Source: Myxococcales bacterium (GTDB lineage: Bacteria > Myxococcota_A > Polyangia > Palsa-1104 > JAEUJZ01). Taken from it: a stretch of 64,000 nt of DNA. A program made the translations under genes and the position numbers. How positions within the stretch are numbered: the first letter of the stretch is position 1; every line of letters starts with the position of its first letter. Shown here piece by piece: positions 11,356 to 44,148 of this stretch. Location of the stretch: assembly GCA_016794465.1 (NCBI GenBank), contig JAEUKA010000028.1, forward strand, positions 1-64,000. Reading direction: 5' to 3'. A model generated the notes under the pieces. It saw only the letters and a list, made by a program, of their open reading frames with translations, searched no databases and was not told where the DNA came from.

Positions 11356-13125
11356 TTAGGAAGAGGCAGAGGCAGCGAGCCGATCGGTCAGCTGGCGATG
11401 CTCATCCCACAGCGCGGGCGGCAGGTGGTCACCGAACTTGCTCAAAAATTGAGCACTCCGCGCCGCTTCCTCCCGCCAGGCCGCCAGATCGACCGCGAGC
11501 AGCTGATCCATCGTGCCCGGCGGCAGGTCGAGCCCACGCAGATCGATCGCACCCGGCGACGGCAGAAGGCCAATCGGGGTCTTCACAAACGAGCCCTCGC
11601 CACGGACCCGCTCGACGATCCACTTGAGGACGCGGACATTGTCACCGTAGCCCGGCCACAGGAACTTGCCGTCGTCGCCAGTGCGGAACCAGTTGACCTG
11701 AAACAGCTTGGGTCGCTTGTCTTCCGTTGTGCGCTGACCCATCCGCAGCCAGTGCGCAAAGTAGTCGCCCATGTTGTAGCCACAGAACGGCAGCATCGCG
11801 AACGGGTCGTTGCGGACTACGCCCACCTGCCCCACCGCCGCTGCCGTCGTCTCGGAAGCCATGGTCGCGCCCAGATACACGCCGTGCTGAAAGTCGTGCG
11901 ACTGCACCACCAGCGGCGCCAGCTTGGCCCGTCGTCCGCCAAAGATGATCGCCGAGATCGGCACTCCTTGCGGAGCGTCAAACAGAGGAGACACGCTTGG
12001 GCACTGCTGAATCGGCGCGGTAAAGCGCGAGTTGGGATGCGCCGCCTTCTCGCCGCTGTCTGGACGATAGGGACGCCCTTGCCAGTCGGTCAGATCCTCG
12101 GGCGGCTCGCTGGTGAGCCCTTCCCACCACGGCTCGTTTTGGCTCGTCAGCGCGACGTTGGTGAAGATGCTGTTCTTTTGCAGCGTCGCGAGCGCGTTCG
12201 GGTTGGTGCGCTTGCCCGTCCCCGGAGCGACGCCGAAAAAGCCCGCCTCGGGATTGATCGCCCACAGCTGACCGTCCGGGCCGTAGTGCATCCAGCAGAT
12301 GTCATCGCCGACGGTGGTGACCTTGAACTCGTCGCCGAGGCTCGGAACAAGCATCGCCAGGTTGGTCTTGCCGCACGCCGAGGGGAACGCCGCCGCAATG
12401 TAGGTGGTCTGCCCACGCTTGTCCTCGATGCCAAGGATCAGCATGTGCTCGGCGAGCCAGCCCTCGTCGCGGCCCATGGTGCTGGCAATCCGCAGCGCGA
12501 AGCATTTTTTGCCCAAGAGCGCGTTGCCGCCGTAGCCCGAGCCGATGCTCCAGATCTCGCGGCGCTGGGGAAAGTGACAGATGAAGCGACGATCGGGCGA
12601 CAGGTCACCGAGCGAGTGCAGGCCCTTCACAAAGCCGCCGCCATGCTGATTCAGGTGATCGATCGCGACCTGGCCCATGCGGGTCATGATGCGCATGTTG
12701 GCGACGACGTACGGGCTGTCGGTGATCTCGACGCCGACCTTGCTCATCGGCGACCCGGCAGGGCCCATCAGGTACGGAATCACGTACAACGTCCGACCGG
12801 TCATACAGGACTCGAACAGCGGCCAGACGCGACGCTCTGCCTCGGCGGGAGAGATCCAGTTGTTGGTCGGACCCGCTTCCTCTTCCGTATCGGTGCAGAT
12901 GAAGGTGAGGTGCTCCGTGCGGGCCACATCACTCGGGTGCGAGCGGTGCAGATAGCAGCCCGGATACGTCTGCTGGCGCAGCGGCAAGAGCACCCCGCTC
13001 TGCGTCATCTTGGCAAGGAGCCGCTGATTCTCTTCCTCGGAGCCGTCGCAGTAGACAACGCTTGCAGGCTTGGTGACGGAAGCGACCTCGTGTACCCAGC
13101 TTTGAATATTGGCAGGGACGTGCAT
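11356..13125 (-). CDS. pckG: Phosphoenolpyruvate carboxykinase (GTP)
   Basis: 589 aa with hallmark GTP-PEPCK segments (YGGNALLGKKCFALRIAS, AAAFPSACGKTNLAML, FGGRRAKLAPLV). Confidence 0.95.
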   Translation of the reverse strand: MHVPANIQSWVHEVASVTKPASVVYCDGSEEENQRLLAKMTQSGVLLPLRQQTYPGCYLHRSHPSDVARTEHLTFICTDTEEEAGPTNNWISPAEAERRVWPLFESCMTGRTLYVIPYLMGPAGSPMSKVGVEITDSPYVVANMRIMTRMGQVAIDHLNQHGGGFVKGLHSLGDLSPDRRFICHFPQRREIWSIGSGYGGNALLGKKCFALRIASTMGRDEGWLAEHMLILGIEDKRGQTTYIAAAFPSACGKTNLAMLVPSLGDEFKVTTVGDDICWMHYGPDGQLWAINPEAGFFGVAPGTGKRTNPNALATLQKNSIFTNVALTSQNEPWWEGLTSEPPEDLTDWQGRPYRPDSGEKAAHPNSRFTAPIQQCPSVSPLFDAPQGVPISAIIFGGRRAKLAPLVVQSHDFQHGVYLGATMASETTAAAVGQVGVVRNDPFAMLPFCGYNMGDYFAHWLRMGQRTTEDKRPKLFQVNWFRTGDDGKFLWPGYGDNVRVLKWIVERVRGEGSFVKTPIGLLPSPGAIDLRGLDLPPGTMDQLLAVDLAAWREEAARSAQFLSKFGDHLPPALWDEHRQLTDRLAASASS

Positions 13126-13259: not shown

Positions 13260-14753
13260 TTAGAAGCGACGGGAGCGACTGCTGGTGGCGCCGGACTGCG
13301 GCATGCCAGGGATGCTGCCCGAGACCTGCGAGCGCGCCATGCTGAGCGAGCTGGCGAGATTCCCGAGCGTGCTCAAGGCCTGATCTTGGCGAAGATCGTG
13401 CTGCTCGCGATCGCGCATATCTTGCAGATAGCCGGGAAGATCACGCTGACCACCAACGAGAGCCAGCGCCCCCAACATCACATCGATGATCGACTTCGGA
13501 TCTTCGATTCGCAGGACATGCTCGGGGGATATGACACCTGCCCACTGCCTAATAATCACGTCGTCTTGGTAGTTGGCGTAGAGCGGATTCTCGGACGCAG
13601 CCTGCGGATCTTCGACGGGGCGCTGGCTGGGATCGTAGGAAAACTCGGCAATCTGGATGTCGCTCTGGGCGCCCGTCTCGCCTTTGCTAGAGATGACACC
13701 TTCAAAGCGCTGGATGTTGCCGTTGACCTCTAGCTCGACGGAGTAGCTGGTCGGCGCGCGGTCCCCCTCATGGAAGCGGTAGTTCTGGACAAACAGACGG
13801 TAGCGACCGGCGGGGGCCTGACCTTTGCGCCAGCGAATGTTTTCGACCGGCTTGGTCGTCTCGCCTCGGACGTTGCGATCGACATCCAGCTCGCCGCGAC
13901 AGGCCGACTGCTTGTGACCGTAGAAGATGTGTTCTCCCGACGGTGTGATCATGTGTAGATCGAGATCGTTGCGGTTGTCCCAGATCAGGCTGGCGCGCAC
14001 ATCAACGCCTTCGTAGACGCCGCCGGCAGCCTCGACGCGCTTCTTGATCTCGGCATCAATGTCGCGCCGCCGCTCGGTCATCGACTTCTGGGGATAGATG
14101 AAAAAGACATGATATTTCTCGGCCAGCTCGCGAAATATCGTCGCTGAGTCTAGATCTCTTGGCTCCTCGCGACCGAGCACGCGGCGAACCTGCTCGCGGC
14201 TGACCTTGGGATAGAAGCCTTCGTCGCCGAGGAAGAAAAAATACCCCTTTTTACCCCTCCCAAGGCACGCCAGCTGGCTGTGCCTGGCGTAAAAGTAAGC
14301 CGCCAGCTCATAGGACTCTTGGCCGGTGCCGCCGCCGCCCTCTTCGATCCAGATCTTCGACAGCACATCGTCGAGTCGGTTGTCGGCCTCGAACTGTCCA
14401 ACCTGAAGCGGCGCCTGGTCCGAGCTGGCATCCCCGATCGCGGCAAAGCTGACCGCCGGCCCGGGAACGTAGTTCTTCATAATGATCTGCCCAATGAACA
14501 TTGGCAGCTTGTCGTAGATGATGCGGGTGTCGTCGCCGCGTGAGCGGGTTACGTCCATCGCCACGACAATCGGGGTTTCGTTTTGACACTCGCGGCTCTT
14601 GCCATGCACGTCGAGCTGCTGGTGTACGCCGCGCCGCGCCGTTGCTTCATTCGCCGAGCCATAGCCGCGATAGGTAAAGACATCGCGGTTCGACGAGCGG
14701 GCTTCTAACGCAATGTCCTCATCGTAATTTCCACCACCCATGGGGCCTCCCAA
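13260..14753 (-). CDS. vWA-like domain protein with uncharacterised beta-rich C-terminal domain
   Basis: N-terminal half has a vWA/MIDAS-like pattern (IVVAMDVTRSRGDD...GGGTGQESYELA). C-terminal half (LIWDNRNDLDLHMITPSGEHIFYGHKQSACRGELDVDRN...) resembles no domain I can name. 48 bp downstream of the pseudokinase gene on the same strand. Confidence 0.7.
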   Translation of the reverse strand: MGGPMGGGNYDEDIALEARSSNRDVFTYRGYGSANEATARRGVHQQLDVHGKSRECQNETPIVVAMDVTRSRGDDTRIIYDKLPMFIGQIIMKNYVPGPAVSFAAIGDASSDQAPLQVGQFEADNRLDDVLSKIWIEEGGGGTGQESYELAAYFYARHSQLACLGRGKKGYFFFLGDEGFYPKVSREQVRRVLGREEPRDLDSATIFRELAEKYHVFFIYPQKSMTERRRDIDAEIKKRVEAAGGVYEGVDVRASLIWDNRNDLDLHMITPSGEHIFYGHKQSACRGELDVDRNVRGETTKPVENIRWRKGQAPAGRYRLFVQNYRFHEGDRAPTSYSVELEVNGNIQRFEGVISSKGETGAQSDIQIAEFSYDPSQRPVEDPQAASENPLYANYQDDVIIRQWAGVISPEHVLRIEDPKSIIDVMLGALALVGGQRDLPGYLQDMRDREQHDLRQDQALSTLGNLASSLSMARSQVSGSIPGMPQSGATSSRSRRF

Positions 14754-14801
14754 AAAGCTCTGCGAGCGCTGCCAGTACTGCCGCTGCGACTCGCCCGGTT
14801 G

Positions 14802-15992
14802 TTACATCTCCAGCGGTAGGAAGCGCTGCGGACCAAAGACCTCAACGCGCAGCCGCGCCAGCTGCTCCGCCACTTCCCACGCATCTTGCGCCCGCTGACG
14901 GGGACTCTCTCTCACCATGAACTGAATGAAGCGCGCAAAGCGCTCATCGACGCTGGGCGGCAAGGTGTCCTGCCTGACATCGCCACCGAGCAGATAGATC
15001 ATCGTCTTGCCGAGGGAATACAGATCGGACGCGGGCAGCGGCGGCCTCCGCGCCGTCACTTCCGGTGGACTAAAGTCCGGATTGTGGGCGCGAAAGCCCT
15101 GCCCGGTCTTCTCGGGCGCCACCACCGCGTAGGTCCAGTCGATCACAAACACGTTGTGATCGTGCGGCCTGACCAGGATGTGCGCGGGCTCGATATTGCC
15201 GTGGATGATTCCCTGCTGATGCGCAAAGCCCAGTCCGGACAGAGCCCGCGCCAAAATCCACGCCACGTGCTCGGCATTGAGTCCATCGGGATAGCGCTCG
15301 CGCACCTCATCCAGATCGTAGCCATCCAGATACCCAAAGATCGTGCCCGCCTGTCCCGATGGAGTCTGGAACTGATCGTAGACCTCGGGCAGGTGCTTGC
15401 GCTGGGCTCCTTCCACCGACTGGAGCGTGCGCAGAATCCGCGTCTCTTCCAGCAGCAGATCGTTGTCCTCACGCTGCATCGCAATCTTGACCGTCACTTC
15501 CTGACCACTGCGCGCCCCCGTCTCGCAAGCGCCGCGATACAGCATCGCCAGATCTCCCTGCGCCAAGATCCGCTGCACGCGATAGGTACTGCCGGCGGCT
15601 GTGACCGTGAAGTCCACCTCCGAGTTCGGCGGAGGCGTCGGAACACTCCGCAGGCGCGGCGGCGGCACCGGGGCTCGCGGCGGACTCGTCTCTGGATCGA
15701 TCGGAATCGGCTGCGGAATCGGACGCGCTCGCTCTAGCTCTTGCACCGCTCGTTGATGCCAGTCGTACAGCTTGCTGAGCAGGTGCCGCGCGCTGTTCTG
15801 CGCCAAGCTGTTACCGGCAAAGCGCTCGGGCCGCAGCCGCCGCACCAGCACCACGTATTCCTCTTCCAGTAGCACCAGGCGCTCGTCGACACTGACCTCT
15901 GTAAGCGCCATCGCCGGAAACACATCCTGCGTCGATCGAGCCCCTGCCAGGAGCGACTTTATCTCGGCCAGATCTTCGTGCAGCACCGACAT
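14802..15992 (-). CDS. Ser/Thr protein-kinase-like pseudokinase
   Basis: Protein-kinase fold with conserved VAIK Lys (EVTVKIAM) and alphaC Glu, but the catalytic loop is HGNIEPAH instead of HRDLKPxN and DFG is DWT. Start at internal Met MSVLHEDL (15992) so it does not overlap the divergent gene at 16118. Confidence 0.75.
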   Translation of the reverse strand: MSVLHEDLAEIKSLLAGARSTQDVFPAMALTEVSVDERLVLLEEEYVVLVRRLRPERFAGNSLAQNSARHLLSKLYDWHQRAVQELERARPIPQPIPIDPETSPPRAPVPPPRLRSVPTPPPNSEVDFTVTAAGSTYRVQRILAQGDLAMLYRGACETGARSGQEVTVKIAMQREDNDLLLEETRILRTLQSVEGAQRKHLPEVYDQFQTPSGQAGTIFGYLDGYDLDEVRERYPDGLNAEHVAWILARALSGLGFAHQQGIIHGNIEPAHILVRPHDHNVFVIDWTYAVVAPEKTGQGFRAHNPDFSPPEVTARRPPLPASDLYSLGKTMIYLLGGDVRQDTLPPSVDERFARFIQFMVRESPRQRAQDAWEVAEQLARLRVEVFGPQRFLPLEM

Positions 15993-16117
15993 CCCCCTGG
16001 GACAGCCGGCGCCCTTTCGCACCTGACCACCGCCCCCACCAGAATAGGACCACCGCCCGCACAGAGGAAGCGGCTCCGCCAAGTGAACGGAATTGCTAGG
16101 GAACTTCGCCCGGCTCT

Positions 16118-17254
16118 GTGCTGCCGACCAAGACCGGCTACTGTAGGACGATGCACATCGTGCGGATTCAGCGGGGGAACGCGCCCCAGGTGTCGCTTCT
16201 GCAAGAGCAGCGGTACGAAAAGGAAAAGGATCTGGAGAAAGACCTGGCGGCGGCACCGCTCCTCCTACAGCAGGTGATGGGAACGCCGATTCAGCTGCTC
16301 GCTACCTCGTTTCGACTGCCTGGGGATGAGCGAGTGGCCGGGCTCTACATCGACAGCGAAGGGCGGCTCCTGATCAGCGAGGTCCGGCTGGCGCGCAACC
16401 TGGGCTCCACGCGGGAGGTGCTGGGACAGCTGCTCGACCATGTCTCGGCGCTGTCGCAGTTTCGGATTGAAGACCTCAGCTCGTCGCTGTCCGGAAAGCT
16501 CGAAGAGGTCTTGCGCAACCTCAGTCGCGGTGAAGTCGAGCGCTATGCTTCGCTGTGGCAGCAGGTCAGTGAGCACCTGCGCGCCGGTCGGGTCGGCATG
16601 GTGCTGGTCCTCGATCGCGCGCCCGCACACCTGCAGCGGATCTGCCGCTATCTGTGTCAAAACGTAAAGATTCAGTTTGTGCTGCTGACGCTCAAGCGGT
16701 TCCGCGCCAGCGACGACAGTGACATCGTGGTGCCCACGCTGGTGGCGCAAGCGGCGCAGCAGCAGGCCCAGGCCAATCTGCTCGAGCTAGCGGTTCAGTT
16801 TGCGCACCAAGGGCCGGCAGCGGTGACCATCGACAACCTCAAGCATCGGCCAGGCGGACTGACGATCTTTCCGCGCGGCTGGCCGCAGGCGGTTCACTAC
16901 GAGTTTGTGATCCATCCCGAGCAAGACTGCTGCATCGGCGTCGAGCTTCACCTGGAAGATCGCGACCTACCGCAGCTGCGCGAGCTGGTCCGCTTTCTGG
17001 GATCGCCGGACATGCAGGATGCGCTGAAGGTTCACTTTGACGGGGGCAGGATTGTCTGGGACCCGACGCACCTGGGGTGTGGACGCTTGGCGGTGATGTT
17101 TGATGCGGCGACCGAGCCGGACTCTCTGTCCGCTGCGATGTCGGTGCTGATGGAGCTAACGTATGCGCGAATCTCCGAGCGGCTCCGTCACCTCAGCCGT
17201 CCTCCCGAGCCGCCACGCGAGCGACCGCAAGCCCCGCCGAAGGAGCCCCAATAA
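16118..17254 (+). CDS. NucS/Hjc-like PD-(D/E)xK nuclease-domain protein with uncharacterised C-terminal region
   Basis: N-terminus EKDLEKDLAAAPLLLQQVMGTPIQLLATSFRLPGDERVAGLYIDSEGRLLISEVRLARN follows the DUF91/NucS pattern (E.dLe..L...pelL..g..ll.rE..t..GriDll..D..G.lvviElK), with Arg in place of the usual Lys. Divergent from the vWA/pseudokinase operon. Confidence 0.6.
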   Translation: MLPTKTGYCRTMHIVRIQRGNAPQVSLLQEQRYEKEKDLEKDLAAAPLLLQQVMGTPIQLLATSFRLPGDERVAGLYIDSEGRLLISEVRLARNLGSTREVLGQLLDHVSALSQFRIEDLSSSLSGKLEEVLRNLSRGEVERYASLWQQVSEHLRAGRVGMVLVLDRAPAHLQRICRYLCQNVKIQFVLLTLKRFRASDDSDIVVPTLVAQAAQQQAQANLLELAVQFAHQGPAAVTIDNLKHRPGGLTIFPRGWPQAVHYEFVIHPEQDCCIGVELHLEDRDLPQLRELVRFLGSPDMQDALKVHFDGGRIVWDPTHLGCGRLAVMFDAATEPDSLSAAMSVLMELTYARISERLRHLSRPPEPPRERPQAPPKEPQ

Positions 17255-37866: not shown

Positions 37867-38057
37867 CCAAGGACAGTCAACGCATCCGGATCGCCTCTGC
37901 CCTGGTGTTTGTTGGTCTGGGAGTCGAAGGATTCACCCTGCGCTGGTCGCATCCGACTGCCTTCTTTGTCTTTGCAGGAATCGGCGGTCTGCTGCTCCTG
38001 CTCGGGGTGCTGGTCTTTCTTTCTACGCTGCTTGGCGGAGCAAACCGGCTATCATGA
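37842..38057 (+). CDS. Small two-TM membrane protein (tentative)
   Basis: 71-aa ORF overlapping the end of the NapC-like gene; two hydrophobic helices (ASALVFVGLGV.., FFVFAGIGGLLLLLGVLVFL). No homology recognised. Confidence 0.35.
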   Translation: MEAGAIQMTKDSQRIRIASALVFVGLGVEGFTLRWSHPTAFFVFAGIGGLLLLLGVLVFLSTLLGGANRLS

Positions 38058-38060
38058 GCC

Positions 38061-39362
38061 ATGAATCCCGATCGACAGCGCGCGCTGGAGGAGCAGCTCG
38101 CCCTGGAGATAAGCCGCACAGAGAAGCTCCGCGCCACGATCATGGCGCTCGCGTTTACGAGCGGATTTGTGATCGCGCTGTTGATCTTTCAAGTGTGGCT
38201 CAAGCGGCTGCCATCAGGCTTCGGTGCGGTGTTCCTGCGCGTCAGTCCGATTGTGATGACTGGCGTCGGACTCATGACCATTTATGGCTGGCTGGCTCGG
38301 CTGTACATCTCTCGCTACGTCGCTCGTCAGAAGCGCGTTCCGCTCGGCTTCGTCCTTATCAACGCAGGCTTTGAGGTCAGCGCGGTTTCCTTCTTCATCC
38401 TGCTGATTGCACGCGCTTCCTCGCCGGCTTTTGCCATCAGCGCGCCACCGATCCTCATCTACTCCCTCCTCATCATGATGTCGGTCCTGCGGCTCGACTT
38501 CTGGCTGTCTCTGTTTGTCGCGGTGATGGTGGCGATTCAGTACGTTCTGTTAGGAAGACTCCTGCTACCAGCAGTTCCCATTGAGGGAGAGCTTGGCTTG
38601 TTGATGTCCCCGATTCCGCTCTACCTGCGAGCAGGAATCTTCATGATCACTGGACTGGCTGCGGGGGTCATCGGCAATGATCTGCGGCACAGACTCATCC
38701 GCACCACAGAGATCGTTGTGGAGAAAGATCGAGCCGTCGCGATGTTTGGTCAGCATGTCTCTCCGCAAGTGGCAGAGCAACTCCTCCGCGAACATACCGG
38801 GGTCCTGACCGAGACGCGGCATGTCTGCATTCTCTTCCTGGATATCCGCAACTTCACACGCTTTGCAGAGAGCCGGACTCCCAGCGAAGTGGTGGACTAT
38901 CTGAACGCTCTGTTCGGGCCGCTGGTCGAGATCGTGGACCGGCATGGCGGCATCATCAACAAGTTCCTTGGCGACGGCTTTCTGGCCATCTTTGGCGCCC
39001 CCCTGGCCAATGACCAGCACTGTCTGTCTGCGGTTCGTGCCGCGCTCGCCATGCTTCAAAAAGTGGAGGAGTTGGGAGCCGCGCAGCTCATTCCCCCCAC
39101 TCGCTTGGGAATCGGTCTGCATGCGGGGATGGTGGTCACGGGCAGTGTCGGCTCGCACCTGCGACGCGAATACACAGTCATCGGAGATGCCGTCAATCTG
39201 GCGGCCCGGATCGAGCAGCTGACCAAGGTTCACAGTGCCCAGCTCCTAGCGAGTGACTCGGTGATCGCCCACCTTCCCGTAGAAGAGATAGCAACTGAGA
39301 AGCTCGCGCTGGTGCAGGTCAAGGGCCGAGAGGCGCCCGTGCAGATCTTCAAGCTCGCATAG
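38061..39362 (+). CDS. Membrane-bound class III adenylate/guanylate cyclase
   Basis: Six-TM N-terminal region and C-terminal cyclase homology domain (ILFLDIRNFT, KFLGDGFLAIFGAP, YTVIGDAVNLAARIE). Confidence 0.85.
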   Translation: MNPDRQRALEEQLALEISRTEKLRATIMALAFTSGFVIALLIFQVWLKRLPSGFGAVFLRVSPIVMTGVGLMTIYGWLARLYISRYVARQKRVPLGFVLINAGFEVSAVSFFILLIARASSPAFAISAPPILIYSLLIMMSVLRLDFWLSLFVAVMVAIQYVLLGRLLLPAVPIEGELGLLMSPIPLYLRAGIFMITGLAAGVIGNDLRHRLIRTTEIVVEKDRAVAMFGQHVSPQVAEQLLREHTGVLTETRHVCILFLDIRNFTRFAESRTPSEVVDYLNALFGPLVEIVDRHGGIINKFLGDGFLAIFGAPLANDQHCLSAVRAALAMLQKVEELGAAQLIPPTRLGIGLHAGMVVTGSVGSHLRREYTVIGDAVNLAARIEQLTKVHSAQLLASDSVIAHLPVEEIATEKLALVQVKGREAPVQIFKLA

Positions 39363-39523
39363 CGGCCTCACCTTAAAAGGCTGCGCGATGGTACGGACCT
39401 CTGCTCGGTCGCGTCTACATCGGCACCAATGATCGTGGCACCTTCTACGGTGAGCCGCAGTCCCCGCAAGCGCGAATTTTCGAGAGAAAACGCGGCCTAC
39501 CCTGTGATAACTTCGGAAGCGCC

Positions 39524-41011
39524 GTGCCATCGAATGTGAGCCTTGCCTCCGCACCTGGACGCGCTCACTCTGCGCAGTCGCTGCCCCGTGCTCTGTTTCG
39601 TACCGCACTCCTTTGCGCGGCTGGCGCAGGGCTGCTCAGCAGTCAGTACGTGGCCGCGCGCGAGCTGGGCTCGACCTTCTTTGTCACCGAGCTATCAATC
39701 ATCGCAGCGACGGTGGTCACCCTCATCGGCCCCAGCCTCAGCTACGCACTCGGGGATCGACTGCGCGGATCGGATCGCTTGCTCCAGTGGTGGGCACTGG
39801 CCGCACTCCTTATTCAGCTGGCACTCCCTTTCGGGATTCGCGCGCTCGTTGGATCGCTCGGGGCATCGCATCCACTGTGGGCTGCTGCCATCACCGCTTC
39901 GGCGGTAGCGCTGCTGTGCGGATATTACGCTTTTATTCTGCCTCTTTATGCCGAGCCTGCCTCTCTGCCTCGGCTGTATGCGGCGGAGCTTGGCGGCGCT
40001 CTGCTGACCTTGCTGCTGCTCGCAGTGGCGCCTTCGTATCGGCTGTTCTTGCCTTTCTTTCTGCTGCTGCCGGTGCTGATTGCCTGGCTGACTCAGCGAC
40101 GGCTGGTGGCGCTCTGTACGCTGCTCTTGGCGGGCGCAGTATCCACCCAGACAGAGTCCCTCGATCGCTGGGCCAGTACCCACTACTACCGACATTATCA
40201 TCAGCTGGACGCGCCCCGTGTTATCGAGAGTGTTTACTCTCCCTATCAGCGCATTGATGTGGTGGAAGCGGCTGCCGACACCGCGCTGTACTTGGACGGA
40301 GTGCCATTCTATCGCTCCGGTGATCTCGATTCCTTCAATGTCTTTCTGGCCGAGCTACCGGGCTCTCTCTTGCCGAAAAGGGGTCGGGCACTGGTGGTAG
40401 GGAGTGGCAGTTTCTCGTCGGCGGCACGGCTTCATCGACTGGGTTACCGCGTCACCGTCATCGAGCTGGATGCTCTGGTGGCCAAGGTCGGATTTCATCG
40501 CTTTGCGCACCTGCACAAGCTTTCGCCAGAGATGATCACCCTGCACATCGACGACGCACGCCGGGTGCTTGCGACTCACTCCGATTCCTATGATCTGATT
40601 GTCCTTGATGTACCTGCACCGTATCGGATTGCGACGGCGCTCCTGCACTCACCGGAGTTCTATCGCCAGGTGGCGGCACGCCTGACCCCCACAGGAGTCG
40701 TTGCGCTCAGTCTCTGTGATGACCTGGCGGGATCGCTTGGGAAGCGCATCGCAGCGTCGGCAGCCCAGGTCTTTGCAGAGATCATGGTGGTGGAGAGCAG
40801 TGCCGTAGGACTCGGGGTTCTGTATGGTGGCGCGCAGCTGCCGTTTTCGATCCAAGCCGCTGCAGAACAGCTCCGTGCCCGCGATCCGCAAGGCGGACAG
40901 GTGACTCCTGATCAGCTGGTACGCAGCCAGGTTCTCGACGCTGATCCGCTTGGTCCCCAGGATCTACTTGGCGTCCTGTTGCTGTCACGTCAAGTGGTGC
41001 AGTTGCCATGA
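39524..41011 (+). CDS. Membrane-bound spermidine-synthase-like (PABS-fold) protein
   Basis: N-terminal multi-TM region then Rossmann/PABS-like module (ALVVGSGSFSSAARLHRLGYRVTVIELDALV...YDLIVLDVPAP). 4-bp ATGA overlap with the next gene. Confidence 0.7.
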   Translation: MPSNVSLASAPGRAHSAQSLPRALFRTALLCAAGAGLLSSQYVAARELGSTFFVTELSIIAATVVTLIGPSLSYALGDRLRGSDRLLQWWALAALLIQLALPFGIRALVGSLGASHPLWAAAITASAVALLCGYYAFILPLYAEPASLPRLYAAELGGALLTLLLLAVAPSYRLFLPFFLLLPVLIAWLTQRRLVALCTLLLAGAVSTQTESLDRWASTHYYRHYHQLDAPRVIESVYSPYQRIDVVEAAADTALYLDGVPFYRSGDLDSFNVFLAELPGSLLPKRGRALVVGSGSFSSAARLHRLGYRVTVIELDALVAKVGFHRFAHLHKLSPEMITLHIDDARRVLATHSDSYDLIVLDVPAPYRIATALLHSPEFYRQVAARLTPTGVVALSLCDDLAGSLGKRIAASAAQVFAEIMVVESSAVGLGVLYGGAQLPFSIQAAAEQLRARDPQGGQVTPDQLVRSQVLDADPLGPQDLLGVLLLSRQVVQLP

Positions 41012-44000
41012 CCCAGCTGCCAGAGAGCCTGCGGAAGCTCGAAGCATTTTTGACTGGGTCTGCGCTGGCCCACCTGCAAGTCGCACTCGGCTTTGCGGCG
41101 ATGCGCGGCCTGGGAGCCAGTGCCTCTGCATGGTTTGCGGTGCTGTTTTGCTGGCTGCTCGGTGGGCTCTTCGGAACCCTCTTGGCCAGGCGTGGCTGGC
41201 TCACTTCCCGTCGAGAATCTACCCTCGCTTTATTGGCCCTGCTCTTCCTTACCCTGACAGAAGCGGCGACTCTGCTTCAGCCGTTCTCCGCGCTTCCTCG
41301 CTTGGCCATCGTGCTGGCGGCGGTGTTGTCCGGAGGCTATGGCGGCGCATTCCTGGCCAGTCGTGGTACCCAAGGAGCCTCTATTGCCGCGCTGTTTTTT
41401 CATGAAAACAACGGCTTTCTGTGTGGCTTTGTCGTTGCCAGCGGAGTCTTGCTCCTCCACGCTCCGCTGCTGCTGCCACTGACCGCTTTGGGAGTGCTTG
41501 CAGCCCGCGCCGCTGCGCCGAACCGGCAGTCTGGTCCGCTCCTGTTTGCGGTAATATTAGGCATATCATCTACTTCCTTTCAGCTGCTCTTTGCGTGGGG
41601 GGGCGAGCCGGCCTGGGATGCCCTCATGACTGCCTCGGTGCTCACTCATCCCGACGCTGTGGATCTGCAAGGCTGGCTGTTCTTTGCGCATCCGCTGGTG
41701 ATTCCTCTGACCGCGCCTTTTCGCTTGTTCACAGGTGATCCGTTGCAAGCGGTGACGCTGCGTGAAGCAGTCTGTCATGGTGGCGTGATCACCCTGCTCT
41801 ACTTGGCTGGACGAGCGCTCGCTGGCCCGCACAAGCACGGCCTGCTGATCGCGCTGCTGACAGCGCTGCAAGTCTTCCTTTCCGTCGGAAAATGGCAGCT
41901 TGCCCTGGCTGGAGAGGAAAAGGAAATCACCGTTCTGGCTAGCAGTGCCTTTCTGTTTTTCTATCTCGATCATCGCGGCCTGTGGAGCCTTCACATCGTG
42001 TCGTTTTCGGCCCTGGCACCGCGCTGGCGCCGCTTCCTACTGGGTGCGCTGCTTGCGCTGGCGATGTCGATTCACATCCAAAATGGACTGCTGGTGGTGT
42101 GGCTCCTGTTTGATCTGCTGCTGACACTTCACAAGCCCAATCTCCGTCGACAAGCTGCCATTGATGTGGTGGTAGTTTTCATCGTTTCAGCAGCGCTTGC
42201 CGGACCGTTTTTTGTGTGGCTGGCCAGCGCGGGAGGAGGTGCAAGAACCCCGCGCGAGCTGCTCCAGTTCTATTTGGAATATCACCTGTCTGGTGAGTTT
42301 TTTTCGATTCCGGCTTCCCTGTCCGAGCGCCTGTCTGAGTGCTATCGCGGGCTGCGCTTGTGGCTGCTCGGTGATCTCCCGCTTGGGAGTCCTCGGCTAG
42401 AGCCTGCGCTGGCGACTCTTGGCCTGCTCTTGCTGTCGCTGTCGGCCCTTCGGCAGGCACCGCTGGTGGTGTCGCGGCTGCTGGCTTGGCCACTGCTGAT
42501 CTTCCTCCACTTTTTCTTCTATCAGCCATGGCATCCCGAAGCATGGAGTCCCGCTGCGGCGTGCGGCTCTCTGGTGATCTCGCTGGGACTGCTGGGAAGA
42601 GGTCGCCTGCTTCCGCTGCGGTGTGGACTGGCGGTGCTGTGGATTGCCGTACTGGCATTCCTACTCGGTCGCGATCAGCAGCAAGGAAGACGCCTATCTG
42701 AAGAGGTTCAAGCGTTTGTGGAGGCAGATTCTCCGTCGAGAACTCCGCTGCGCGAGCTTACGCGCTGGCTGGATGTCCACCTTGAACCAGAGGCCGAGAT
42801 CCTGGTCACAGATCGACTCCTGGTGTCGTATTTTCAGCTCTATACCAAGCGAACTCCCCTGGTTCGCGAGTATCTGGGAGTTCCCAAGGAAGCGCTGCGC
42901 GGCACCTATCACCTCACCTCCCTGAGCCTGCGCTTTTACACGCCACAGCGTACTCTGGCCGAGATCGATGCGGCCATCTTGGCGGGTCGTCCAGTGTATC
43001 TTCTCAGCACGGAGTCCGGGTCTTCTCCGACGGTCGAGCTGCCTTGGGGCGGACTCCTTTTGTCACGGCTTACTACCCCTTTGGGAGTCCGGGCAGAGAC
43101 TCCTTTGACACCACCTTCGCGGACTCTGGTTCACGCTACAGATCTGCTCTCAAACGATCTGACACTGACAGCAGTAACTCCGATCAATCCGTCGGTGTAT
43201 CGGCTCGTTTTGCGAAACGGAGAGCGGACGTTTTCGGCCAAGTGGAAGCCGCTGGGTGTGGAAGGGAGTGAGGTGCAGGAGGGCTTTGATGGCAACAACG
43301 CACCGCGCTGCGAGCTGGCGGCACGGCGCATCGATCAGTTCTTGTCCGACGGTGATCCGCGCAGAGAGCTGGTTCCTGAAGTGGTGCTGCGTTCGTTTCA
43401 TCGCCAGGTTCCCTGCGACCGTCCCTGTCAGGGAATCCCTCAGCTCATCGGTGCAGGAGTCCCGGCTACGTTTGCTGCGATCAACGATCATCTGGTGCTG
43501 GGTGCCCTGAGTCTGTGGATCGAGGATGCCGAGCGTCCGCAGCGCTTTTCGGGTCAATTGTGGAGTCCGCAGCGCTTTGCCCAAGACCCGGCGTACCGAC
43601 GGAACTTTGCCGATTTGATGACGTTTCTCTATCTGATTGCACATGGTGACGCAAACTACGCGGACAACTTCCTGTATTCCGAAGGTCCACCACCACGCGC
43701 CTACAGCATCGACAACGGACGCTCTCTGGATGGCATTCCTTTTTACACCACAGAGGGCGATCCAGACTGGCAGCCTCTGGCGCAGCTCACACCGCAGTCG
43801 CTCGTCGCTCCGGCACTGTCTAGGCAGACTCTCCATCGAGTCGCTGCGCTCCAAGACGCACGACTCCTTCCATCACTGTATCTGGTTGCGGCGATCGATC
43901 TGAGCTCTGGCCGCACCGTCAGCGAACCGGACTCTGTCCCAAGCCTGCGCAAGTATGTCGGACGACCGCTGTCAAACATTCCGCAGCTGCAGAAGGTCAG

Positions 44001-44148
44001 TCGCCAAAGTTACCTGACTCCCAAGGAAGGCAGCGACGGGCCATGGCTGCTGCTGGGAGTCTCGGAGTCGGGCACCAAGGAACTCCTAACGCGAGCGGCC
44101 GCCCTGCTTCTGCATCAGCGTACCGCCAAGCTGCCGCTGTTCGACTGA
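41008..44148 (+). CDS. Large integral membrane protein, GT-C glycosyltransferase-like, with protein-kinase-like C-terminal domain (tentative)
   Basis: 1046 aa. More than 12 predicted TM helices with long loops, resembling PMT/ArnT-type GT-C proteins. The soluble C-terminal ~400 aa contains a Brenner-type catalytic pattern HGDANYADNFLY...YSIDNGRSL (HGD..N and DxG equivalents of APH/CotH-like kinases). Confidence 0.65.
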   Translation: MTQLPESLRKLEAFLTGSALAHLQVALGFAAMRGLGASASAWFAVLFCWLLGGLFGTLLARRGWLTSRRESTLALLALLFLTLTEAATLLQPFSALPRLAIVLAAVLSGGYGGAFLASRGTQGASIAALFFHENNGFLCGFVVASGVLLLHAPLLLPLTALGVLAARAAAPNRQSGPLLFAVILGISSTSFQLLFAWGGEPAWDALMTASVLTHPDAVDLQGWLFFAHPLVIPLTAPFRLFTGDPLQAVTLREAVCHGGVITLLYLAGRALAGPHKHGLLIALLTALQVFLSVGKWQLALAGEEKEITVLASSAFLFFYLDHRGLWSLHIVSFSALAPRWRRFLLGALLALAMSIHIQNGLLVVWLLFDLLLTLHKPNLRRQAAIDVVVVFIVSAALAGPFFVWLASAGGGARTPRELLQFYLEYHLSGEFFSIPASLSERLSECYRGLRLWLLGDLPLGSPRLEPALATLGLLLLSLSALRQAPLVVSRLLAWPLLIFLHFFFYQPWHPEAWSPAAACGSLVISLGLLGRGRLLPLRCGLAVLWIAVLAFLLGRDQQQGRRLSEEVQAFVEADSPSRTPLRELTRWLDVHLEPEAEILVTDRLLVSYFQLYTKRTPLVREYLGVPKEALRGTYHLTSLSLRFYTPQRTLAEIDAAILAGRPVYLLSTESGSSPTVELPWGGLLLSRLTTPLGVRAETPLTPPSRTLVHATDLLSNDLTLTAVTPINPSVYRLVLRNGERTFSAKWKPLGVEGSEVQEGFDGNNAPRCELAARRIDQFLSDGDPRRELVPEVVLRSFHRQVPCDRPCQGIPQLIGAGVPATFAAINDHLVLGALSLWIEDAERPQRFSGQLWSPQRFAQDPAYRRNFADLMTFLYLIAHGDANYADNFLYSEGPPPRAYSIDNGRSLDGIPFYTTEGDPDWQPLAQLTPQSLVAPALSRQTLHRVAALQDARLLPSLYLVAAIDLSSGRTVSEPDSVPSLRKYVGRPLSNIPQLQKVSRQSYLTPKEGSDGPWLLLGVSESGTKELLTRAAALLLHQRTAKLPLFD

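Follow-up and report, generated by a model that had tools for sequence, protein, structure and literature searches.

A pseudokinase gene beside a vWA/DUF2135 gene in a Myxococcales bacterium: a possible reduced copy of a widespread bacterial and phage module

In the TerY-P triad, the von Willebrand factor A (vWA) protein TerY is reportedly encoded together with a PP2C phosphatase and a Ser/Thr kinase. Here, we analysed a gene pair that resembles this arrangement in a 64-kb window (the whole stretch of DNA under study, from contig JAEUKA010000028.1 of a Myxococcales bacterium). Two minus-strand open reading frames (ORFs), 14802..15992 and 13260..14753, encode a kinase-like protein with an N-terminal J-like domain and a vWA protein, respectively, and a divergent plus-strand ORF (16118..17254) lies on their other side. 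We tentatively read the pair, with a confidence that stops a little short of even, as a reduced two-gene copy of a widespread, uncharacterised module, in which a nucleotide-binding pseudokinase scaffold and its vWA partner would serve a function centred on purine nucleotides. An earlier note on this DNA, made from the sequence alone, had described the two co-oriented ORFs, and both are indeed present.

As in TerY-P, a cytosolic vWA protein is encoded beside a kinase-fold protein, an analogy that the earlier note had drawn. The comparison did not hold up. No PP2C gene is found among the annotated flanking genes, as had been recognised before; no VWA or TerY hidden Markov model (HMM) matches the vWA protein, and the kinase is both degenerate and fused to a J domain. 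Furthermore, the vWA protein belongs to a different family carrying a DUF2135 domain, and the conserved third partner of the pair is a PurA-like ligase instead of a phosphatase. PP2C is not conserved in the sampled ortholog loci either, where one SpoIIE gene was seen, near locus L004 only. Membership of the pair in TerY-P was rejected on account of the missing PP2C, the degenerate J-fused kinase and the silent Pfam VWA models.

The vWA-MoxR and ternary NTP-dependent conflict systems of multicellular bacteria (Kaur et al. 2020, PMC7159879) are like the module in having a vWA component, kinase-like domains that are inactive, and TIR and CHAT heads that can be exchanged. In contrast to these systems, neither the window flanks nor the ortholog loci annotated with Pfam contain a MoxR AAA+, STAND or GTPase partner, the match of TCAD9 to the window kinase has an E-value of just 0.11, and the conservation of the module is far above what is typical for them. 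Adenylosuccinate, pyruvate kinase and DUF2135 are all unmentioned in that paper. TerY-P and vWA-MoxR thus resemble the module just in combining a vWA domain with a kinase fold, while their defining partners are absent here. Two further likenesses concern single domains. E. coli YfaP possesses a homologous beta domain, including the W-x-x-x-D-L-D-L-H-V motif, but it is a small protein of the yfaS alpha-2-macroglobulin cluster with neither a vWA domain nor a kinase partner. The J-domain co-chaperones of the DnaJ family are homologous over helices II-III, whereas HPD is exchanged for RPE in the window protein. The literature searched, the coverage of which is incomplete, yielded no account of the module, and an earlier description is possible.

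A conserved pseudokinase and its vWA partner

The Pfam Pkinase model (PF00069) matches residues 139-337 of the first gene product with 50.4 bits (2.6e-13), well above its cut-off of 31.7 bits, which bears out the kinase fold proposed earlier. The motifs claimed for it, namely K169, E183, HGNIEPAH and DWT, were all located. Residue conservation was counted over 54 non-identical pseudokinase orthologs. The residues involved in nucleotide and Mg binding are kept: the beta3 Lys and the alphaC Glu in 54/54 and the DFG Asp in 53/54 of the sequences, and the window protein has all three, as a Hanks-type kinase does. The HRD Asp, loop Lys and loop Asn of a competent Hanks-type Ser/Thr kinase are missing from the window protein. 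Across the family, the HRD Asp has become Asn in 53/54 orthologs, the catalytic-loop Lys has become Glu or Asp (51/54) and the loop Asn has become His (52/54), resulting in the consensus HGN-x-(E/D)-P-x-H, while the DFG Phe is replaced by Trp in every one of the 54 (motif DW(C/S/T/A)). HRD occurs in no ortholog with a recognisable catalytic loop. Structural landmarks such as the APE Glu (54/54), the alphaF Asp and the alphaH-I Arg are invariant, and so is a family-specific DNDL motif between beta3 and alphaC. The glycine-rich loop of the window kinase is degenerate (AQGDLAMLY). Since the degeneracy of the catalytic loop is shared across the family, it is not a sequencing or annotation artefact, and the earlier claim of a degenerate kinase survives the comparison with orthologs. 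Judged by its residues, gene 14802..15992 is a pseudokinase gene, whose canonical catalytic residue has been lost in a manner conserved family-wide.

SelO-type pseudokinases are active AMPylases. It is conceivable, if rather improbable, that the protein described here is likewise an active atypical enzyme, which would catalyse AMPylation or another nucleotidyl or phosphoryl transfer onto the vWA protein or a small molecule. The near-invariance of the four substitutions, the retention of the ATP- and Mg-binding residues and the invariant DNDL motif would fit such an activity. However, the same positions vary in phage (HGAITPDN in Catera) and in some bacteria (HANLCPDT, HGNVSPEH), which argues against a strict catalytic constellation, and the degenerate glycine-rich loop also speaks against it.

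The kinase domain also matches the PADLOC kinase models PD-T4-6, MkoA and mad6. An assignment to MADS6, PglW or PD-T4-6 was rejected because these are generic kinase-fold matches (NCBIfam MAD6, 74 vs 460 bits; PglW, 22 vs 990 bits). In PADLOC-DB 2.0, the kinase has such generic matches only, and no model matches the vWA protein.

The region preceding the kinase domain is J-like. Alignment of the ortholog N-terminal profile with residues 1-78 of E. coli DnaJ by hhalign gave a probability of 95.4% (E 1.8e-8) over helices II-III, and precomputed Pfam DnaJ (PF00226) matches exist for 17/120 homologs; Pfam DnaJ does not match the window pseudokinase itself. HPD, the tripeptide of Hsp70-stimulating J domains, is found in many orthologs, among them L001, L079, P0150 and P0200, while the window, L002 and L088 have RPE or NPE at this position. 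The homology to J domains extends to the window protein without the HPD, which makes canonical stimulation of DnaK by its J-like domain unlikely. In other orthologs the same pseudokinase domain is preceded by a TIR domain, a CHAT domain, a Zn-ribbon region or an active kinase. The TIR-headed and CHAT-headed pseudokinases lie inside the same operon type, at one locus by TCAD9/pentapeptide genes and at another by Trypco1 genes. A J domain fused to a pseudokinase was not described in the literature searched, again with incomplete coverage.

In the second gene product, the vWA fold and the MIDAS (metal-ion-dependent adhesion site) motif DxSxS...T...D are both present, and a metal site is predicted. 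D67, T69, S71, T143 and D177 are invariant or near-invariant in the ortholog alignment. The family lies outside current models: Pfam VWA-clan HMMs gave no match at E <= 1, and Pfam, NCBIfam and PDB sequence searches with the protein returned nothing useful. The beta domain that follows was called unfamiliar in the earlier note. Its WDNRNDLDLH...LDVDRN signature was correctly recognised there, but the domain is homologous to the DUF2135 domain of YfaP, with an hhalign probability of 96.4% (E 1.2e-9; 38% identity over 71 columns). It also matches phrog_1735 (1e-31) and, in another comparison, is 52% identical to a segment of a Bacillus phage protein. Relatives with the same domain match Pfam DUF2135 (PF09906) and P_proprotein, and the Uabimicrobium ortholog is named 'YfaP family protein' by NCBI; on the window protein, Pfam DUF2135 stays below threshold. 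The beta domain recurs alone in many phage and bacterial proteins.

Both ends of the vWA protein are conserved, as N-terminal MGG(G/S/A)xY and C-terminal (R/K/D)RL, even in short relatives that lack the beta domain and in gp250 of mycobacteriophage Catera. The C-terminal helical domain is likewise conserved in long forms, short forms and Catera gp250. More than 1201 homologs were found, with about 60% identity across phyla, a value that holds between Myxococcota, Leptospirales, Acidobacteriota, Planctomycetota and candidate phyla radiation (CPR) bacteria. An exhaustive profile search returned 8,179 cluster representatives at E <= 1e-3 and 731 at E <= 1e-30, most of which share one domain only.

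Gene neighbourhood in other genomes and in phages

To one genome per species, 185,579 species in total, a pattern-limited scan was applied, which yielded 118 relatives and 80 loci that were kept; neighbours in these loci were counted by targeted tblastn in place of all-against-all clustering of crude ORFs. In 60/80 loci, a co-oriented pseudokinase gene immediately precedes the vWA gene, and in about 5 of the 20 others hardly any upstream sequence is available. The pair thus forms a genuine conserved operon. Of the three-gene arrangement put forward in the earlier note, this pair is retained across several phyla, while the nuclease-like gene was seen beside the pair in the window, and beside the kinase gene in L088, but at none of the other 80 loci.

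A homolog of the adenylosuccinate synthetase gene, here called PurA-like, is located within 6 kb of the vWA gene in 51/80 loci. It follows directly downstream in 24 loci, after one gene or about 4 kb in 14, and is divergent, 3-5 kb upstream, in 13. Between the vWA and PurA-like genes, a 310-aa pyruvate-kinase-barrel (PK-like) gene is inserted in 17/80 loci. Independent Pfam-annotated loci show the same order of kinase, vWA and Adenylsucc_synt genes among otherwise unrelated neighbours. Furthermore, 13/80 loci (Acidobacteriota, CPR, Omnitrophota) carry NAD-salvage genes directly upstream of the pseudokinase gene and co-oriented with it, the set comprising isochorismatase/nicotinamidase-like, NadD-like (or an approximately 820-aa NadE-NadD fusion) and PRK/uridine-kinase-like genes. 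Examples are L079 (2611-4852), L021, L027, L033, L038, L052, L057, L058 and L069. These upstream genes suggest a larger, horizontally transferred nucleotide operon.

The PurA-like enzyme has the Adenylsucc_synt fold (Pfam 4.9e-83). Its genes score 148-223 bits against the PurA-equivalog cut-off of 402, and 28-72 bits against the PurZ cut-off of 300. Comparison of 54 sequences with authentic E. coli PurA showed that the P-loop and the equivalents of Asp13, His41, Gln224 and Asp333 are retained. In contrast to PurA and PurZ, other residues stand in the aspartate-binding loop and at several IMP contacts, the changes being Asn38 to Gln, TT128/129 to SC, TRVG to TRHG and ATTGRRRR to xWQG-xFR. We take ATTGRRRR to be the aspartate-binding loop of PurA, as in PurA structures. 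By these sequence features, the linked enzyme is neither a canonical PurA nor a PurZ. Catera gp252 (L007, 4079-5407), named '2-aminooxy adenylosuccinate synthetase' in RefSeq, was considered as a PurZ and rejected: it scores 57 bits against the PurZ cut-off of 300 and 148 against the PurA cut-off of 402, and neither label is therefore supported.

The cluster C mycobacteriophages (Bxz1, Catera, about 200 records) encode members of these kinase, vWA and PurA-like families, and the gene order is unchanged. Their genes are known from annotation, gp249 of Catera as 'serine/threonine kinase' and gp250 as hypothetical. Catera gp249 shows 30% identity over the kinase domain (E 6e-42) and has an HPD-bearing J-like N-terminus and degenerate HGAITPDN and IDW motifs, so that its catalytic-loop substitutions differ from those of the window protein. 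Catera gp250 (42% identity over the vWA core, E 5e-43) is a short form without the DUF2135 beta domain, unlike the window protein. The PurA-like gp252 comes after gp250, with an 88-aa gene between them, whereas no PurA-like gene occurs in the window. In L097 and in two contigs from IMG/VR, L098 and L099, PK-like and PurA-like genes likewise follow a short-form vWA gene; a scan of IMG/VR with the long-form patterns found two viral contigs, both with short forms.

In two Polyangiaceae loci (L078, 298-4184; L083, 1920-5965), a second, divergent module stands head-to-head with the long-form vWA gene. Two of its genes are short and vWA-like, a third is kinase-like (27% identity), and it also has a PurA-like gene of the Catera kind. 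As an impression from record titles, the long form occurs mostly in lineages with a predatory or epibiotic way of life (Nannocystis, Polyangia, Candidatus Uabimicrobium, CPR, Omnitrophota), with Leptospirales and Acidobacteriota in addition; the CPR carriers are Moraniibacteriota, Parcubacteria and Saccharibacteria.

The pair and its surroundings in the window

Both ORFs of the pair are full length in the window, with all family-invariant residues intact. The ratio of non-synonymous to synonymous substitution rates (dN/dS) of the kinase gene is 0.15 against L088 and 0.08 against L002, and that of the vWA gene is 0.06-0.08 (against fragments from close relatives), compared with 0.12 for the neighbouring gene for phosphoenolpyruvate carboxykinase (PEPCK). 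The vWA protein retains 80% identity to the L002 copy despite saturated synonymous sites. Purifying selection acts on the window pair. Taking the intact genes, the invariant residues and the low dN/dS values together, we read the window copy as a functional, though reduced, two-gene form of the wider module.

In two relatives that are 86-89% identical, the vWA gene is found in two pieces (L018, 4691-5725 and 10028-10261; L010, 6001-7068 and 2358-2597). The first piece covers residues 79-423 or 79-434, and the last ~78 codons lie about 4.3 kb away. The 4.3-kb insertion holds three opposite-strand ORFs of 203, 619 and 490 aa, and the 4.7 kb upstream contain no kinase gene. In the 90%-identity cluster to which the window vWA protein belongs, fragments of 413 aa and 88 aa are frequent.

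It is very improbable that the window pair is a decaying, functionless remnant of the full module, given that both genes are complete with their invariant residues, that their dN/dS is as low as that of PEPCK and that the vWA protein is so well preserved relative to L002. The observations that would fit decay are the loss of HPD in the window, L002 and L088, all three of which have no PurA-like gene nearby, the insertion into the vWA gene of L018 and L010 with the common 413-aa and 88-aa pieces, and the L088 kinase gene without an adjoining vWA gene.

The third, divergent gene had been proposed to encode a NucS/Hjc-like nuclease that forms a three-gene signalling or defence module with the vWA protein and the dead kinase. 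Adjacency of the genes in the window, adjacency of kinase and third gene in L088, a partial match of the N-terminal half to PADLOC PDC-S11 (E 2.6e-10, profile positions 8-194 of 358), and a predicted alpha-beta-beta-beta-alpha order with a D68...E77 spacing compatible with a PD-(D/E)xK core are in line with this proposal. The nuclease identity itself found no backing in Pfam, NCBIfam, PHROG or PDB, and the N-terminal half has a predicted local distance difference test score (pLDDT) below 50 in the AlphaFold model; the fold is putative. The C-terminal domain has a fold like that of type III secretion system chaperones and YbjN. D68 does not vary among the homologs and E77 is conserved in about 90%, while the position of the Lys, where the earlier note saw an Arg substituting for the catalytic residue, differs even between homologs with 75-99% identity (Arg here, Leu in P0399), so the protein lacks a conserved D...(D/E)xK triad. 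Among 5.8 billion proteins, no more than 10 close homologs (75-99% identity) and a single distant homolog were found, and the gene stands beside the kinase gene only in the window and in its relative L088 (nucleotide identity about 80%), in 0 of the other 80 loci. In L088 it adjoins the kinase gene even though the vWA gene is gone, for which reason we regard its adjacency as local synteny. This distribution largely refutes the three-gene proposal, which we find scarcely credible; the third gene looks like a local neighbour and not a partner of the module. L088 itself (GCA_963851905.1, contig CAWKSS010000006.1, 5525-9173) keeps the pseudokinase and the divergent gene, and has phosphatidylinositol-specific phospholipase C (PI-PLC), major facilitator superfamily (MFS) transporter and AMP-binding genes in place of vWA and PEPCK, with the synteny break exactly at the kinase stop.

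The features of the three genes are collected in Table 1. The start of the kinase gene is consistent with ortholog starts, while a longer GTG ORF, to 16256, would run into the divergent gene. For the vWA gene, the start is ATG 14741 (MGGGNY...), which is preceded by a GGGAGG ribosome-binding site and matched in 20/20 aligned orthologs; the resulting protein is exactly GenBank MBL9041458.1 (493 aa, 'hypothetical protein [Myxococcales bacterium]'), and its kinase-like neighbour MBL9041459.1 is labelled 'protein kinase'. With this start, the gap between the two genes is 60 bp and not the 48 bp given earlier, although their same-strand adjacency stands. Similarly, ATG 16151 is the most probable start of the third gene, which lengthens the divergent spacer from the 125 bp assumed before to 158 bp.

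Table 1. Position and strand of the three genes, their domains and their motifs in the window
Feature	Position	Strand	Remarks
J-like domain + pseudokinase gene	14802..15992	-	396 aa; Pfam Pkinase, ortholog alignments, dN/dS
J-like domain	15738..15992	-	aa 1-85 of pseudokinase
RPE (for HPD)	15825-15833	-	J-like domain
Kinase-fold domain	14802..15617	-	aa 126-396
beta3 Lys K169	15486-15488	-	kinase domain
alphaC Glu E183	15444-15446	-	kinase domain
Catalytic loop HGNIEPAH (for HRDxKPxN)	15180-15203	-	kinase domain
DWT (for DFG; Asp = D285)	15132-15140	-	kinase domain
vWA + DUF2135-like protein gene	13260..14741	-	493 aa; cytosolic
vWA domain with complete MIDAS	14085..14597	-	
MIDAS DVTRS (D67-V-T69-R-S71)	14541-14555	-	
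MIDAS Thr (T143) in GGGGTGQE	14316-14339	-	Thr or Ser in orthologs
MIDAS Asp (D177) in GDEG	14217-14228	-	
Beta-sandwich, DUF2135/YfaP type	13623..14060	-	residues ~232-377; WDNRNDLDLH...LDVDRN...KPVENIRW
C-terminal helical domain	13326..13571	-	AlphaFold helices 397-476, pLDDT 85-92
Low-complexity basic tail	13260-13325	-	ends RRF here, RRL in most orthologs
Divergent neighbour gene	16151..17254	+	367 aa; lineage-restricted, outside conserved module

The closest relatives are metagenome-assembled genomes of Polyangia/Myxococcales. The flanking genes encode HlyD/OEP efflux, PAS-STAS, RNase T2, LON-N, PEPCK, a trypsin-like protease, FN3 and a TonB-type receptor. The context is ordinary chromosome and no defence island. 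A GTP-dependent PEPCK gene (11356-13125, minus strand) lies on the same strand, 134 bp downstream of the vWA gene. PEPCK is also downstream of the vWA gene in L018, and in other lineages the pyruvate-kinase-barrel gene takes the equivalent position; this positional match may reflect a shared link to phosphoenolpyruvate (PEP) or GTP, or may be a coincidence. A promoter and terminator scan returned one promoter-like and one terminator-like site, counts that do not exceed those in shuffled sequence. Elsewhere in the window, positions 38000-44000 have a strongly negative AT skew (-0.17 to -0.28) over the plus-strand ORFs 38061-39362, 39524-41011 and 41008-44148.

Possible role of the module

In the mechanism that we propose, the pseudokinase and the vWA protein would form a complex, in which the pseudokinase acts as a nucleotide-binding but non-phosphorylating scaffold. 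The N-terminal head would provide the output, with the J domain recruiting DnaK in most orthologs and a TIR, CHAT, Zn-ribbon or active kinase head serving in some. The MIDAS site of the vWA protein may bind a partner through a ligand that is acidic or a phosphate, and the module may regulate or assemble the PurA-like enzyme or read its product. From the inferred complex, the output of the heads and the ligand held at the MIDAS site, the business of the module would be centred on purine nucleotides. The window copy probably acts without canonical DnaK stimulation, and its PurA-like enzyme may be encoded elsewhere or have been lost.

Several points weigh against this proposal. The mechanism rests wholly on gene order and residue conservation, and the AlphaFold model of the vWA protein is moderate (mean pLDDT 71). 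The conserved replacement residues Asn, Glu/Asp and His of the pseudokinase could signal atypical catalysis and not a dead site. Neither a PurA-like nor a PK-like gene is present in the window; with these genes missing and no HPD in the J domain, what was deduced from other genomes may fail to apply to the window copy. In addition, cultured Nannocystis (L011-L015, L017) have the long-form vWA gene (64% identity), but the 6 kb to each side of it contain neither a pseudokinase nor a PurA-like gene, and L088 keeps the kinase gene while the adjacent vWA gene is missing, showing that each gene can stand alone.

An unlikely, yet serious, alternative is an anti-phage or conflict system, in which the vWA/DUF2135 protein or the pseudokinase would sense an invader or a nucleotide alarm and the J, TIR or CHAT head would be the effector. 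The PurA-like and PK-like enzymes would then make or remove a nucleotide signal, with the phage copy as a counter-measure. This would agree with the TIR- and CHAT-fused orthologs in the same operon near TCAD9/pentapeptide and Trypco1 genes, with the patchy distribution (118 relatives in 185,579 species genomes in the pattern-limited scan), and with homologs in mycobacteriophages and a 188-kb viral contig. It would also agree with the PADLOC matches of the kinase domain to PD-T4-6, MkoA and mad6, and with identities that do not track taxonomy, a Planctomycetota copy being 61% identical and same-phylum Kofleriaceae copies 55-57%. However, about 60% identity across phyla and a dN/dS of about 0.1 are unlike fast-evolving sensors, and the window and the sampled loci have housekeeping and regulatory neighbours without flanking defence genes. 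Moreover, the PADLOC matches of the kinase are generic, the vWA protein has none, and the module is found in CPR genomes of about 1.3 Mb.

A bolder and quite improbable extension of the favoured two-gene reading is that the pair forms the core of an unrecognised nucleotide-centred pathway of bacteria and mycobacteriophages. The PurA-like enzyme, a divergent GTP-dependent ligase with WQG-xFR in place of the aspartate-binding loop, would here couple purine nucleotides to some nucleophile that is not aspartate, a candidate being the Gly that is invariant at the N-terminus of the vWA protein. The PK-barrel protein would recharge GTP from PEP, and the pseudokinase would read the product and signal to the J-domain, TIR or CHAT head.

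For annotation, three likely mislabels are corrected by this analysis: 'serine/threonine kinase', 'adenylosuccinate synthetase' or PurZ, and the assumed nuclease partner. If the module is as proposed, a family of 'protein kinase' and 'hypothetical protein' entries would become a conserved module of Myxococcota, Leptospirales, Acidobacteriota, Planctomycetota, CPR bacteria and about 200 mycobacteriophages. It would tie a pseudokinase with an invariant alternative active site to a MIDAS-containing vWA protein and a new PurA paralog, the latter being a candidate for new purine-nucleotide chemistry. A constant sensor or scaffold would be coupled to outputs of different kinds, namely a chaperone (J), an NADase (TIR) or a protease (CHAT). 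In bacteria and phages alike, the module would give a tractable model in which to study what pseudokinases do.

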